Shown in pieces: positions 40,901-49,900 of a stretch of DNA of 51,920 nt. How positions within the stretch are numbered: the stretch's first letter is position 1; each line of letters starts with the position of its first letter. The stretch spans positions 1 through 51,920 of the forward strand of contig JAWSUI010000026.1 of NCBI GenBank assembly GCA_033551855.1. Direction: 5' to 3'. Source of the stretch: Deferrisomatales bacterium. Lineage in GTDB: Bacteria; Desulfobacterota; Deferrisomatia; Deferrisomatales; JACRMM01. Made by a program: the position numbers.

Positions 40901-43900
40901 CGGCGTCGAGCTCCCCTCCCTCCACCCGAGGGGCCAGGTGGTCGGAGATCCCCGACCGGATGCGCACTTGGAACTCCTCGTGCTCCCTCCGGAGGCGGGC
41001 CAGCACCCCGGGCACCGGTCCCGTGAGCGCGGTCGGGATGACGCCGAGCTCCAGCACCCCGCGGACCCCGCCGTGGGGATCGAGCTCCCCCCGGAGACCG
41101 TCGTACAGCGCCAGGATCTCCTCGGCTCTCTCGAGGATGAGGCGCCCCGAGGGGTTGAGCCTCGTGCCCCGGCCCGTCCGGTCGAAGAGCTCCGTCCCGA
41201 GCCCCTCCTCCAGCCCCTTCATCTGGTGGCTCACCGCCGCCTGGGTGAGCCCCAGGTGTTCCGCAGCGGCGGAGAAGCTCCCGGCGCGGGCGATGACCGT
41301 CAGGGTGCGCAGGGCGCGCAGCGACATGCGGAACAGGACCTCTTCGGAGCTTGGCCCCGGCTTGCCCTCTCTGGGCGGCACGACTCAAGGAAGTGACGGA
41401 CGGGAAACGCTCGGGGTGCCCCTTGGCAGGACCCGGCGAGCCAGGCTAGCGCGTCTCCCCCCGAAAGACAACCGACGGCAAAACTCGGAACCCACCCGCG
41501 GGTCCGTTTCTGGCCCCGGCCACCGAGCGTCTTCGAGAAAGGGCGCCCCGCGGGGCGTTTAGAGAGAATGACTATTCTCAAGTGGCCCGCCGGTCCGCCT
41601 CCTCGCGAAAGGCGACGTCTGATCTTTTGACAGGGATCAAGGTTGCGGCATCTTTTCCGGGAGACAATGTGACGAGTCATTCACTACGAGGGCGGGATGA
41701 GGCGCGAGCGGCCGGCCCTCCGGCCACAGCGTCCCCGCCGGTTACCCGGCGTCCACCGCACGGCTCAGTGCTGGATGAGCCCGGAGACCGTCCCATGAGA
41801 AGAATCGCGGCTCTCGCACTGCTGTTGGCCTTCGCGGCCGGCGGAGCATTCCTGATCGTCCAGAAGCGCGCTCGCCTGGCCGCGGCACCCGCGGAGGCGA
41901 GCAGGCCCGTCCCCGTGCAGACCGCAATGGCGTCCCTGGGTTCCCTGACCTCCAGCCGCACGTACCTGGGCCGGGTGGAGGCCTGGCAGACGGCCCGGAT
42001 CGCGGCCCAGATCTCGGCCCGGGTCCGTGAGATCGCGGTGCGGGAGGGAGACACGGCGAAGAGCGGCCGGGTGGTCGTCCGCCTGGACGACGCGGACCTT
42101 CGCCACGCCCTGGCCGCAGTGGACGCCGAGCTCCGACAAGCGGCCGACCTGGCGGCCTCCCAGGAAGCGACCTGGTCGTCCCTCCGGGGCACGGAGGCTT
42201 ACTGGCGCCGGGAGGCCGAGAGGGACCGCCGCCTGGCCGCCGAGGGGGCCGTGGCGCGGGCGGCGGCCGACGCCGCCGCGGACCGTTGGAACGAGGCGGC
42301 CGGGCGGCTGGAAGCAGCGGAGAAGGCGCTCTCCGCCGCCCGTCACCAGTGGGACGCCCTCCGGGAGCGGCGCCGGGAGGTCGAGGCGCGGGCGCAGTAC
42401 GCCCTCCTCTCGAGCCCCTTTACGGGGGTGGTCTCCCGCCGGTGGGCCGACCCCGGCGACCTGGCCGTCCCCGGCAAGCCCCTCCTCGAGATCGAAGACC
42501 GGTCTCGGCTGCGGGTCCTGTTTGCGGTACCCCAGGAGGAGGCGGCGCGCCTCGCTCCCGGGGTCGAGGTCATCGTGCGGCGCGATCGAGGGGAGCTCGG
42601 TCTCCTCGTCTCCCGCGTCCACCCCACCCTCAACCCCGACCGGACGCTCACCGCCGAGGCCGAGGCGCCCGGGGACGCCGGGCTCGAGCCCGGCGCCTAC
42701 CACGCCGTCGAGGTGGTCTGGGAACGGCGAGAGGGGCTCGTCCTGATCCCGGCTGCGGCGGTCCTGGTCGGCCCCTCCGGGGAAGCGGCCGCCTTCGCCG
42801 TGGTCGAAGGGCGCACCGAGCTCCGCCCCGTGCGCGTGGTCGCGTCGGGCGGCGGCAAGGTCGCGGTGGAGGGGATCGACCCCGGCCTCGAGGTGGTGAC
42901 GAGCACCTACCTGGGCTGGAACCGCCTGGCCGCCGGGGAACGGGTGGAGGTGACCCGATGAGCCTCACCCGGCACGCCCTGGAGAGGCCCCACGCCGTCC
43001 TGGTCCTGGCCCTGCTCGCAGCCGTTCTCGGGGTCTTCGGTCTGCTCCGCACCCCCACGGACCTGTTCCCCGACACGGCCCCGCCCCAGGTCGCGGTGGT
43101 CACCGTGTACCCCGGCGCGTCGGCCTCGGACGTGGACGGCGAGGTGACCCAGCTCTTGGAGCGCGAGCTCGCATCGGTGGCGGGTCTGGTCCGGGTGCGG
43201 TCCGTCTCCCGGGACGAGGTCTCCTCGGTCACCGCCGAGTTCCGGTATGAAAAGCCCGTGGGCGAGGCGGTGGTGGACGTGCAGACCGCGGTGGCCCGGG
43301 TCCGGGGCTCCCTGCCCGCGCAGACCGAGGAGCCGCGGCTGTACCGCATCACCGACGCCACCCGGCCCCTCCTGACCCTGGCCGTCTCGCCGGCGGCCGA
43401 GAGCCTCAAGTCCCTCGCGGGCGTGCGCCTCTTGGCGGAGAACCAGCTCCGGGACGCCCTGCTGGCCGTGCCCGGGGTCGCCGACGTGCAGGTGTTCGGG
43501 GGCCGCCGGCCCGAGGTCTCCGTCCGCGTGGACCGGGAGGCCCTGGCCGCCCGGGGGATCACCCTGGGGGAGGTGGTCGCCCGCCTGGCCCAGCAGAACG
43601 TCTCCGCCCCCGTGGGCACCGTGTACGGCTCGGCGAGCGAGTACCTGGTGCGGGTCCAGGGGCAGTTCCGGGACCCGGCCGAGATCGAGGCGCTGCCCCT
43701 GCGGTCCTCCTCCACCAGCCAGATCCGCCTCGGGGACGTGGCCCGGGTCGCCCTCGCCGACGCCGACCCCCGGAGCGCCTACCACGGGAACGGCCGGCCG
43801 GCGGTGGCCCTGAACGTGCTCCGGGCGGAGGGGGGCCACACCGTCGCCGCCATCCGGGCCGTCAAGGAGGCCCTGCCCGGCATCGAGGCGCACTACCCCG

Positions 43901-46900: not shown

Positions 46901-49900
46901 TCGAGGCCCGGGCCTCCTATTCTCTCTACGCCGCGCCCGACCCGCGCCCCGCCTTTCCGGGGGGCGAGGACCGGCGCTGGGAGGACGACGCGTTCGTGGG
47001 CCTGCAACTCACCGTCCCCCTCCTGGACGGCGGCCTGCGGGACGCGAACCTCCGGCAGGCCCGGGCGCGGGCCGAGGCGGCGCGGGCCGCCTTGCGCCGG
47101 GCACGGCTCGAAGCGGCGCGGGAGGTCAGCCAGGCCGAGGCGGACCTGGATCGCGCCCGTGCGGAGATCGCCGCCAACCAGGCCGCGGCCGACGAGGCCG
47201 GCGAGGCGGCGCGGATCGAGCGGCTCAAGTACGGGGAGGGAAGGGGCACGGTGAACGACGTGCTCGAGGCGGAGGCGGCGCTGCTCGACGCCGAGGGGCG
47301 GCTCCGGGCCGCCCGCCGGGAGGCCGAGGTGGCCCGTCTGGCCCTGGACCTGGCCCTGGGCCGGGGGCCGGTCGCCGGGAATCAGGAGTCTTCCCCCCGG
47401 GGGGGCCGGTAGCCTCTCCCCCTCCCGCCTTGACGACCTGGCTAGGCCGTGCTACACGGGACTCGTGCTACACGAGGTCGACGAGGCGACGATGGCGAAC
47501 CTGACGATCACGGTCGATGAGGACGTCCTGCGAAAGGCCCGGCTCCGCGCCCTGGAGACGGGGACGTCCGTGAACGCCTTCCTGCGCAGCGCCCTGGAGT
47601 CCTTTGCGGGGGCGCGAGACGAGCAGCTCGAGGCGCTCTCAGACCTCCTGGCGTTGTCGCGCTCCTGCGCGTCCGGACGAGGCGGGCGTTCGTGGACGCG
47701 AGACGAGCTCCACGAGCGCGGGCCGTGAGATCGTTCTTCGACACGAACATCCTCGTCTACCTCTTCGACGCCGGATCCCCGGAGAAGCAGGGCGCCGCCA
47801 GGGAGATCCTCGAGCGGGAGGTGCTGGAGGGGCGGGCCGTCCTGAGCACGCAGGTGCTCCAGGAGCTCTACGTCGCCGTGACGAGGAAGCTCGCCGCGCC
47901 CCTCCCGCCCGCCGACGCCGAGCGCGCGGTCAGGGACCTGGCTGCCCTCCCCACCGTCCAGGTCGACAAGGACTTGATCCTGCGGGGCATCCGCCGCTCC
48001 CGGGCGTCGGTGCTCTCGTTCTGGGATGCCCTGATCCTCGAAGCCGCCCTGGAGGCCAACGCCACAACGCTCTTCACGGAAGACCTCCAGCACGGGCAAG
48101 TCATCGGTGGGCTACGGATCGCCAACCCCTTCGTCCCGCCCGCGCCCCCTCCCCCATCCGGGAAGGAGCGATCCCGGTAGCCCTTGCCCCGTCTGGCACC
48201 GAGCCGGCAACGGAACGCGGGGGAGCTTCCGGCGGCCCCCCCTACTTCTGGGGGCATGGAGCCGGAACGGGGAGGCCCGGCGCACGAAGCCGAACGCCCG
48301 GCCGCAGGGGCCGGGCTCAGCCGCCTGCGAACTCCACGCCCTTCTGGATGTTCGCCCGAAGGGTCGGGATCATCTCGTCGAAGAGCTTCTTCTCGTAGGC
48401 GCTCAGGCGACCGTAGCCGACCACCTTGGTCGCGCCGCCCTTGCCCAGGCGCACGGGCAGGGCGAAGTACTCGGTGGGCTGGCCCTCCACCGGCACGTAG
48501 GCGCACTGCACCGACTCTTTGCCCTGGAGCCCGCAGACCAGCGCCATGGTGAACCGGCAGGCGGCCTCGGCCATGGAGAGGGTCGCCGACCCGGCCCCGG
48601 CCTTGGCCTCCACCACCTCGGTGCCCGCCTCCTGGATCCGCGGGGTGAGCTTGTCGAGCTCCTTCTGTGTGAACGAGACCCCCTTCACCTTCGAGAGGAG
48701 CGGCAGGATCGTATTCCCGCTGTGGCCGCCGATCACGGTCACCTGGGTCTTCACCGGGTCGAGCTTCTTGAGCTCGGCCACGAAGGTCTTGGCGCGGATC
48801 ACGTCCAGGGTCGTCACGCCGAAGAGCTTTTTCGGGTTGAAGACCCCGGCCTTCTTCAGGACCTCGGCGGCGATCGGGACCGTGGAGTTCACCGGGTTGG
48901 TGATGATCGCGAAGCAGGCCTTGGGGCAGGCCCTGGCCCCGGCCTCCATCAGGTTCTTCACGATGCCCGCGTTCACGTTGAAGAGATCGTCGCGGGTCAT
49001 GCCGGGCTTCCGGGGCACGCCGGCGGGGATGACCACCACGTCGCTGCCCTTGAGGGCCTTTTCGAGCTCGTCCTTCCCGTGGCCCGTGACCTGGACCGTC
49101 GTGGGGATGTGGCTCAGGTCCACCCCGACGCCCACGACCACCGGCACCACGTCGTACAGCGCCAGCTTGGACCCGGCGGGGAGCGCGTTCTTCAGGAGCA
49201 GGGACAGGGGCTGGCCGATGCCGCCGGCGGCGCCGAGCACGGTGACCTTCATGGCGGTTCCTCCCTTCGAAAGTGGACAGCGGACGGCGGAATGCTAGGC
49301 GGCGGCCCCGCCGGCGTCAAGCGCCTTTTAGCGAAAATCAAGTCCTTTTAGCCGAGCTAAAGTTGGCCGGCGCACCGGCGGTTCCGACCCCGTCCGGAGG
49401 GCGGCATCTTGACCCCCCCGGCCCCTCCCCGTAGAGTGGCCTCGTGGCGGTGTGCCCAGTCCTGCCGGGAGGAATCGATGAGAGGGGCGCCGGAGAGCCT
49501 GAAGCGGGAGGTGGTGCGGCTGGCCGCCACCGAGCCTCGGGTGGAGAAGGTCATCCTGTTCGGCTCCCGGGCGCGGGGCGACGCGGGCGAGAGGGCCGAC
49601 GTGGACCTGGCGGTCCTGGCCCCCCGCGCAAGCCAGCGTGCGTGGCTCGACCTCGCCTTCCGCCTGGAGGAGATCGACTCCCCGGTGCCCGTTCAGGTGG
49701 TCCGCCTCGAAGAGGTCTCGGCAGGCCTTCGGGAACGGGTGCTGGAGGAGGGGGAGGTGTGGTATGCACGGGAATAAAGCGGCCCAGGGCCTGCGCAACC
49801 TGGGCTCCGCGCTCGAGCGCCTTCGAGAGGCACTGGGGGAACCCGAACACTCCACCCTGGCCATCGACGGAACCATCCAGCGTTTCGAGTTCGTGATCGA

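Follow-up and report, generated by a model that had tools for sequence, protein, structure and literature searches.

A single open reading frame encodes an RND permease and a TolC-type outer membrane channel joined by a predicted internal signal peptide

Tripartite efflux systems like AcrAB-TolC, MexAB-OprM and MdtABC-TolC consist of a periplasmic adaptor, a 12-TM RND permease and a TolC-fold channel in the order adaptor-permease-channel, and the permease and the channel are regarded as separate gene products because they reside in different membranes. Such systems are characterised by a 3:6:3 assembly and proton-driven export. The C-terminus of RND permeases is cytoplasmic, and AcrB carries an Asp-Asp pair in TM4 and a Lys in TM10. 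A gene-level fusion of an RND pump with its outer membrane factor (OMF) was reportedly noted in about 2006 for BmeABC10 of Bacteroides fragilis; to our knowledge, there is no work on its processing. Cleavage at an internal signal sequence is known from FbcH of Bradyrhizobium japonicum, a cytochrome b-c1 precursor. Here, we describe a locus with the same three components as the AcrAB-TolC-type pumps in which, unlike in those systems, permease and channel share one ORF. A literature search, part of which matched mostly unrelated text, found no description of an RND-OMF fusion of this kind.

The window analysed is a stretch of 51,920 nucleotides from a Deferrisomatales bacterium (contig JAWSUI010000026.1, assembly GCA_033551855.1), and the features of the locus are compiled in Table 1. 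Read from the ATG at 42958, the frame stays open for 1484 codons, without an internal stop, until a stop codon whose last base is 47412, and GC3 lies between 0.88 and 1.0 in each 100-codon block, including the block that holds the junction. A 5811-nt contig from one public run (X1), whose source may be the same population or a sister one, spans positions 41500-47091 and bridges the junction with 29 differing letters and no gaps; a further public run (X2) held short fragments of relatives, none of which crossed it. The stop-free ORF and the independent contig bear out the uninterrupted fusion reported in the first-pass annotation. That the fusion is an artefact or recent accident, i.e. a misassembly or a newly lost stop codon, has a negligible probability: no supporting evidence was found and, besides the contig without indels, 84 of the 120 matches listed are fused homologues (identity as low as 35-40%), fused genes are present in closed genomes of 3.3-5.8 Mb, and 24 of 80 GTDB loci are fused. 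With a 401-aa junction query, full-length stop-free matches (55-58%) were found in 3 of 20 other Deferrisomatales genomes and in none of seven genomes of the source organism's own family. One gene encodes both the RND motor and the outer membrane exit channel, and this design is real.

Table 1 Features of the fused efflux locus and the evidence on which each assignment is based.
Feature	Position	Strand	Evidence or remark
LysR-type regulator, divergent	40446..41381	-	Pfam HTH_1 + LysR_substrate
Periplasmic membrane-fusion (adaptor) protein of 388 aa, anchored in the membrane by its N-terminus	41795..42961	+	TIGR01730
Fused RND permease-signal peptide-outer membrane factor ORF	42958..47412	+	1484 aa
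RND permease moiety, residues 1-1019, 12 TM segments	42958..46014	+	Pfam, hydropathy
Cytoplasmic tail and basic n-region, residues 1020-1035	46015..46062	+	Without in-frame ATG, GTG or TTG
h-region (1036-1047) and c-region (1048-1054, ends S-Q-A), predicted 13th membrane pass	46063..46119	+	Home-made rule
Predicted mature outer membrane factor of the TolC type (residues 1055-1484) with two repeats, four beta-strands and long helices	46120..47412	+	AlphaFold2, Foldseek

The permease moiety is complete, as previously claimed: the ACR_tran match covers residues 5-1019 (profile positions 3-1020 of 1021, E 4e-205), and together with the hydropathy peaks it describes a full-length 12-TM permease with two periplasmic loops. 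Its membrane residues differ from those of AcrB, with one Asp plus a Glu in TM4 (D402, E409) and Asn-Asn in TM10 (N931-N932), followed by R963 and T968 in TM11; in the alignment columns, the charged TM residues are invariant among 52 sequences, and the fused family shares the motifs GMVVDAS (TM4) and GTxVNN (TM10). The best PDB match is MdtB (E 6e-103). Membership in HAE-1 (AcrB/MexB/MdtB) was rejected because all NCBIfam scores were below cut-off (604 of 1250, 438 of 1250 and 382 of 940 bits) and the Asp-Asp pair and Lys expected of that family are absent. Membership in HME (CusA/CzcA) was rejected as well (TIGR00914, 343 of 701 bits), as the permease falls outside the HME clade in trees; its score stays below every NCBIfam permease cut-off. 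The unfused sister group, found in omf-mfp-rnd operons of Planctomycetota, Lentisphaerota, Desulfobacterales and others, has permeases that are 52-59% identical with the same TM4 and TM10 motifs, while its channel, from a sister clade, has a gene of its own, upstream of the adaptor, and mostly bears a lipoprotein-type signal.

The second moiety is likewise a complete TolC-type channel with two OEP repeats, as had been proposed. Pfam detected OEP in two stretches (E 9e-47), the AlphaFold2 monomer model reached a pLDDT of 93.3 and a pTM of 0.87, and Foldseek matched it to TolC, OprM, CusC and VceC (E 1e-17 to 4e-20, TM 0.72-0.77). The two repeats, the four beta-strands per protomer and the alpha-barrel of an OMF are all present in this model of a single protomer. 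Run without an alignment, AlphaFold gave an uninformative model of residues 900-1484 (pLDDT 54.5). Among 89 matches, no stand-alone channel exceeded approximately 33% identity at near full length, and the single close channel match also bears an RND domain.

The segment between the two moieties has the build of a Sec signal peptide with a signal peptidase I site, as judged by a home-made rule with controls: a basic n-region, a hydrophobic h-region and small residues at -3 and -1. Residues 1020-1035 are similar to the C-terminal tails of unfused relatives. The first-pass annotation had described a 17-residue h-region and a site reading SQA|VV; the core comprises about 12 residues followed by a c-region of seven, and the source sequence reads SQA|IV, with SQA|VV occurring in a sister protein (P0003) and in the X1 variant at 46120. 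Its statement that the linker varies while its build is kept was correct. Across the 84 fused sequences, which are mutually related so that the counts are not independent, column conservation was 0.33-0.37 in the linker compared to 0.77 in TM12 and 0.51 in the channel, yet the last eight residues before the h-region were net positive in 80 and a 12-residue window of mean hydropathy ≥1.8 was found in all 84. A loose cleavage rule, which every one of the 84 sequences satisfied, gave way to a strict one, [AVS]-x-A after the h-region, which 57 of 76 full-length proteins satisfied compared to 26.5 expected after shuffling; applied behind TM1 and TM7 of the same proteins, it was satisfied in 28 of 74 and 0 of 75, respectively. 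The source signal itself is short and Ala-rich, and S-Q-A does not rank as the most frequent site; from its sequence, cleavage is predicted after A1054. A lipoprotein OMF of the OprM/NodT type, processed by signal peptidase II, was rejected as no lipobox Cys follows the source h-region; a loose lipobox pattern occurred in 4 of 84 homologues at scattered positions.

Contrary to the uniqueness implied earlier, there are many RND-OEP fusions, and they are polyphyletic. A length-restricted search returned 2318 RND relatives of at least 1384 aa among 7999 scored, with both Pfam domains in 103 of the best 120; several fusion clusters are listed in the Atlas, and JGI names several members of the present family 'AcrB/outer membrane protein TolC', a label holding both domains. 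Carriers of fused pumps available in culture include the environmental bacteria Deferrisoma camini, Desulforapulum autotrophicum and Zunongwangia sp. HGR-M22. More than 100 CusA/CzcA-OEP metal-pump fusions are also listed (Bacteroidota and allies, approximately 1450 aa, labelled 'CusA/CzcA family heavy metal efflux RND transporter'). They share the architecture and the internal signal peptidase I-type signal but belong to another RND family and form a separate clade with full support, which makes theirs a separate fusion event. The outgroups of our first tree, crudely chosen as longest ORFs, lay on very long branches; its root was ignored and rooting was redone in later trees. Judged from these sequences, the fusion design has arisen more than once in bacteria. 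In the CzcA-type fusions, [AGS]-Q followed the h-region in 102 of 105 (31.5 when shuffled, 4 of 105 after TM1), and in 50 of the 52 that lack a Met in the linker, these counts being from another RND family with taxa named for only some entries; nine further, unanchored fusions inspected by eye comprised eight with an A-Q site and one with a lipobox. In Bacteroidetes, Gln at +1 is a mark of cleaved signal peptidase I substrates (PMC5837995). This rule supports cleavage of the internal signal in CzcA-type fusions and would carry over to the present family, where Gln is at +1 in 28 of 84 sequences, by analogy only.

The adaptor scored 119.7 bits against TIGR01730 (cut-off 94.9), as expected for the linked adaptor of a tripartite RND efflux system, and its 3' end overlaps the permease start by 4 nt (ATGA), as annotated before; in related loci, the adaptor also lies immediately upstream of the permease. 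The LysR-type gene is a possible regulator of the cassette, and no such regulator recurred as a neighbour across 80 related loci. No MarR or ars-type neighbour was found beside the cassette in the source genome, and scans for promoters and terminators gave nothing exceeding chance. Relatives are located in arsenic/thiol-redox clusters, and neighbours in the unfused sister group include ArsR, ArsP, ArsE, ArsF and TauE; from such gene neighbours, we would guess at thiol or metalloid compounds as the substrate. The source genome encodes two S26 peptidases and three Omp85 genes.

We consider it likely, with a probability of roughly 0.8, that the fused product is a polyprotein cleaved by signal peptidase I; besides the build of the linker, the lack of a close stand-alone channel and the presence of the S26 peptidase and Omp85 genes count in favour of this reading. 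A single precursor chain would be made, and the Sec translocon would insert the 12-TM permease so that the C-terminus remains cytoplasmic. Together, the basic tail and hydrophobic stretch 1036-1047 would then act as an internal signal, threading the last 430 residues into the periplasm, where signal peptidase I would cut after A1054. The released channel would reach the outer membrane as such proteins normally do and form trimers, the permease would retain a 13th-helix stub or lose it by trimming, and permease, channel and adaptor would form a proton-driven tripartite pump, itself probably ordinary, with permease and channel equal in number. Of the earlier proposal of a cleavable 13th pass, Sec export and release by signal peptidase, the fusion and the n/h/c segment behind a cytoplasmic C-terminus are borne out, and export and cleavage are their most likely outcome; of the proposed 1:1 ratio, equality at synthesis stands, while nothing indicates that the ratio is the reason the fusion is kept. 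FbcH is likewise a polytopic inner membrane protein with an internal signal that frees a second protein on the periplasmic side; however, both of its products stay in the inner membrane, whereas the second product here would be bound for the outer membrane.

An alternative explanation is that no cleavage takes place: the linker would serve as a lasting 13th transmembrane helix, and the channel domain, still attached to the permease, would work within the periplasm or in some unusual geometry. The hydrophobic span of the linker (median 18 residues) is indeed close to that of TM7 (19), and no solved structure of such a fusion was among the best 60 of 102 PDB matches. However, the four beta-strands of the outer membrane barrel are retained, A-x-A is enriched, nearly all CzcA-type fusions have Gln at +1, and the tether falls far short of the length needed. 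A distance of 23 nm separates the two membranes in assembled pumps, and the channel reaches into the periplasm by 10 nm (PMC4754349); helix H1 belongs to its equatorial belt (PMC8277102). Between the predicted site and H1 there is a median of 8 residues (75 of 84 sequences anchored), and by our own estimate a tether of 8-17 residues spans about 6 nm at most compared to at least 13 nm required, so that an uncut chain could not reach the channel position. We regard this reading as highly improbable.

It is also unlikely that the two parts are overlapping in-frame genes, with the channel translated from its own start near the permease end and the missing stop giving a long by-product only. Start codons (ATG, GTG or TTG) do occur in frame in the n-region of 14 of 25 DNA junctions, a Met is found there in 50 of 105 CzcA-type fusions, and the source gene has in-frame GTGs at the end of TM12, although these lack an SD site. 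By contrast, the source n-region holds no start codon, ATG occurs at 4 of 25 junctions, no start position is conserved, and SD-like sites precede 3 of 25 junctions compared to 59 of 68 true permease starts, so an internal start as raised in the earlier caveat appears unlikely from sequence. All permease chains would moreover still bear signal and channel, so that processing would be needed anyway. Little weight is given to cleavage by a different protease or elsewhere in the chain, or to a channel that is a passenger serving other pumps while the permease uses another channel. Several further OEP genes are present in the source genome (18 matched stretches), and two loci nested among the fused forms (L059, L060) have lost the channel with permease and adaptor intact; against this, the phylogenies of permease and channel within the fused family largely agree and the linker carries signal peptidase I features.

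If one precursor yields both proteins by signal peptidase I cleavage, it would be a natural bacterial polyprotein sorted to two membranes, with the 3:3 permease-to-channel ratio set at synthesis. We put at even odds the broader view that polyproteins cut by signal peptidase, with products for the inner and outer membranes, evolved repeatedly and independently, that RND-OMF fusions are a large unstudied class labelled 'permease' (at least two demonstrated origins and a likely third with an internal lipobox, no processing experiment being in print), and that in the present subfamily the fused state may predate the split operons. The fused gene lends itself to a clean test of signal peptidase acting on a signal that follows 1000 residues of a polytopic protein, and of any benefit of co-synthesis for pump assembly. 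Many annotated 'permeases' of approximately 1450 aa conceal a channel, and inventories of outer membrane channels in these lineages are therefore undercounts.

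The pump and its outer-membrane channel are encoded in one open reading frame, as the first-pass annotation had proposed: the frame runs from its ATG through 1484 codons with zero internal stops, Pfam places a full ACR_tran domain at residues 5-1019 plus two OEP stretches, and a contig from a public sequencing run (X1) spans 41500-47091 with 29 differing letters and no gaps, an assembly check only, since it may derive from the same population or from a sister one. Codon-position GC was like that of a normal gene along the full length, and the adaptor gene (388 aa) shares an ATGA overlap with the start of the fused gene. 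AlphaFold2 modelled the channel part (residues 1055-1484) with a pLDDT of 93.3 from a 75-sequence alignment, giving four beta-strands and long helices as in a TolC protomer, and the model matched TolC, OprM, CusC and VceC at TM-scores of 0.72-0.77 (Foldseek). Judged from this model, the channel moiety is complete. Of 102 sequence matches in the PDB, the 60 best included no fused chain.

The linker was compared in 84 fused sequences (the window and 83 homologues, excluding the near-identical P0003), all of which carried a hydrophobic segment, with net positive charge just ahead of it in 80. Computed over 37 rows, column conservation was 0.77 for TM12 and 0.51 for the channel, against 0.33-0.37 for the linker. 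At the predicted site the window reads SQA/IV; the SQA/VV reported earlier belongs to the sister protein P0003. A strict [AVS]-x-A motif followed the h-region in 57 of 76 proteins longer than 1400 aa compared to 26.5 after shuffling (controls in the same proteins: 28/74 after TM1, 0/75 after TM7), by a crude rule and with related sequences that are not independent counts. This enrichment behind the h-region is clear. The n-region of the fusions resembled the C-terminal tail that unfused relatives normally have, suggesting that the fusion event put a signal h-region onto a permease tail.

The predicted site lies a median of 8 residues ahead of channel helix H1 (75 of 84 sequences anchored). According to two papers, the inter-membrane distance in reconstituted pumps is 23 nm, of which OprM extends 10 nm into the periplasm (PMC4754349), and H1 is part of the equatorial belt, mid alpha-barrel (PMC8277102), which would leave 13 nm or more between H1 and the inner membrane. 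By our own estimate a tether of 8-17 residues spans ~6 nm at most, so that the chain would have to be cut. Signal peptidase I and Omp85 genes are present in the genome. The earlier reading, in which the channel is exported and cleaved at the internal signal, is probably right (probability about 0.8), the fusion being observed and the cleavage predicted. An alternative explanation is that the channel is translated from its own start inside the junction; some start codon did occur in 14 of 25 DNA junctions (24 related loci and the window), but ATG in only 4, and the window's n-region contains no ATG, GTG or TTG. Furthermore, SD-like sites (-6 kcal/mol or stronger) were found in 3 of these 25 junctions compared to 59 of 68 true permease starts, and no close stand-alone channel relative appeared among 89 matches, all of which lowers the likelihood of a separate start.

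The first-pass annotation had also implied that the design is unique, which is contradicted by many CzcA-type RND-OEP fusions. In the Atlas, several clusters combine ACR_tran and OEP; two of them are named CusA/CzcA and have Bacteroidota as their commonest phylum. With a CzcA-like permease of this genome as query against proteins of at least 1384 aa, 2318 of 7999 scored proteins matched; of the 120 top-scoring proteins, both domains are listed for 103, a profile of those tails picks up a further 11, and 6 are other kinds of fusion. These CzcA-type fusions form a clade apart from the window's family, so RND-OEP fusion arose at least twice. [AGS]-Q followed their h-region in 102 of 105 sequences (of 114; 9 missed the anchor) compared to 31.5 after shuffling and 4/105 after TM1, and in 50 of 52 without a linker Met, a protein-level count that leaves GTG/TTG starts possible. 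In Bacteroidetes, ~71% of SPase I substrates carry a +1 Gln that is cyclised afterwards, according to PMC5837995. That a buried site follows a free-N-terminus rule is the strongest indirect evidence for genuine cleavage, although it comes from another family and carries over by analogy. One RND-OEP fusion (P0123) carries an internal lipobox (SPase II) and no SPase I site. Four CzcA-type permeases of ~1810 aa (P0129, P0134, P0135, P0143) are joined to a heavy-metal P-type ATPase by a linker that lacks a signal peptide. This agrees with the following domain being cytoplasmic and provides a natural negative control. In P0136 and P0137 a CzcA-type permease is followed by a multicopper oxidase via a Met-containing, lipobox-like linker; either a fusion or an overlapping gene may account for this.

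Residues 900-1300 of the window's protein matched 471 of 8000 candidates; the best 120 comprised 84 with both Pfam domains (P0003 counted) and 36 unfused permeases. Carriers of the fused form include Deferrisoma camini, Desulfuromonas, Desulforapulum autotrophicum, Myxococcota, Acidobacteriota and Candidatus Rifleibacterium. The full junction was present in 3 of 20 other genomes of the order and in none of 7 of the window's own family, a patchy distribution. A GTDB scan gave 405 relatives, of which the best 80 were kept as loci; 24 are fused, all in the order adaptor-permease::channel where the flank was long enough. Among 63 tree-set loci with a near-full permease, fused or unfused, 30 encode the channel separately, upstream of the adaptor, and most of these channels carry a lipoprotein-type signal; the remaining loci show no channel in the available DNA, often since flank or contig ends, and L093 has a lipoprotein channel gene downstream. 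In locus L078 (2801-7246), adaptor and permease matches share one stop-to-stop frame, possibly an adaptor-permease fusion or merely a shared open frame.

A single branch separated fused from split forms in the permease tree and likewise in the channel tree, and the sub-groups of the two trees largely match. Two unfused permeases were placed among the fused forms: in L060 (8141-8300) the n-region is kept, followed by a stop and an apparent remnant (by eye) of the channel's last, C-terminal helix, and in L059 (8108) the permease ends in the tail. Both are secondary losses of the channel. With proper outgroups the permease tree nested the split forms within the fused group (monophyly of the fused forms had an AU p of 0.022, from 23 rows with long branches), whereas in the channel tree the two groups are sisters.

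The permease scored under every NCBIfam cut-off, and these scores together with its key residues (TM4 D402/E409, TM10 N931-N932, TM11 R963/T968) ruled out HAE-1 or HME membership. Recurring neighbours in the best 80 loci were MTH895/ArsE thioredoxin (18), TauE (17), ArsR (15), ArsP permease (14 and 5), FmdE (11) and MarR (10, 9 of them fused), besides DsbD/ArsG-like, DGC and ArsF. Most of these neighbours adjoin split forms; in another genome (G008), the fusion sits inside an arsenic-type cluster. The window's genome has such a cluster without a pump on a contig other than the cassette's (C46:9000-18500), with ArsA-like, radical SAM, ArsR, ArsP, ArsG-like and ArsE genes (most labels by eye), of which ArsG-like and ArsE are 88% and 72% identical to the fusion's neighbours in G008. 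As to the substrate, thiol or metalloid compounds are a tentative lead, rather less likely than not. In the window the cassette is flanked by a divergent LysR gene on one side and toxin-antitoxin pairs on the other; the latter stretch, right of the cassette, is an accessory region, and the N-terminus of the malate dehydrogenase between its modules looks like the E. coli/mitochondrial type.

Coordinates of the cassette and its surroundings in the window
Feature	Position	Strand
Long cluster: heterodisulfide reductase subunits, flavoproteins, succinyl-CoA ligase, fumarate hydratase (by appearance; Pfam check on fumarate hydratase only)	19098-40149	-
Adaptor gene	41795-42961	+
Fused gene	42958-47412	+
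FitA-like/PIN toxin-antitoxin pair, nucleotidyltransferase/HEPN pair (probable, by eye), AAA+DUF4143 ATPase	47492-48180, 49409-51662	
Malate dehydrogenase between toxin-antitoxin modules	48317-49252	-

No description of an RND-OMF fusion was found in the literature searched, most matches being judged from listings, and the accessible portions of PMC8277102, PMC12164818, PMC8157006, PMC10872679 (including a portion of Table S2), PMC4790245, PMC4446572 and PMC4754349 do not mention one. Both domains are already named in JGI annotations of family members. RND-OMF fusion has perhaps been mentioned earlier at the gene level; bmeB10 of B. fragilis is reportedly fused to its OMP gene, and FbcH of B. 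japonicum is said to be cut at an internal signal. The fusion is made of ordinary pump parts with a predicted unusual biogenesis, and it is widespread and visible in databases. It is a known kind of pump, and what would differ is its biogenesis.
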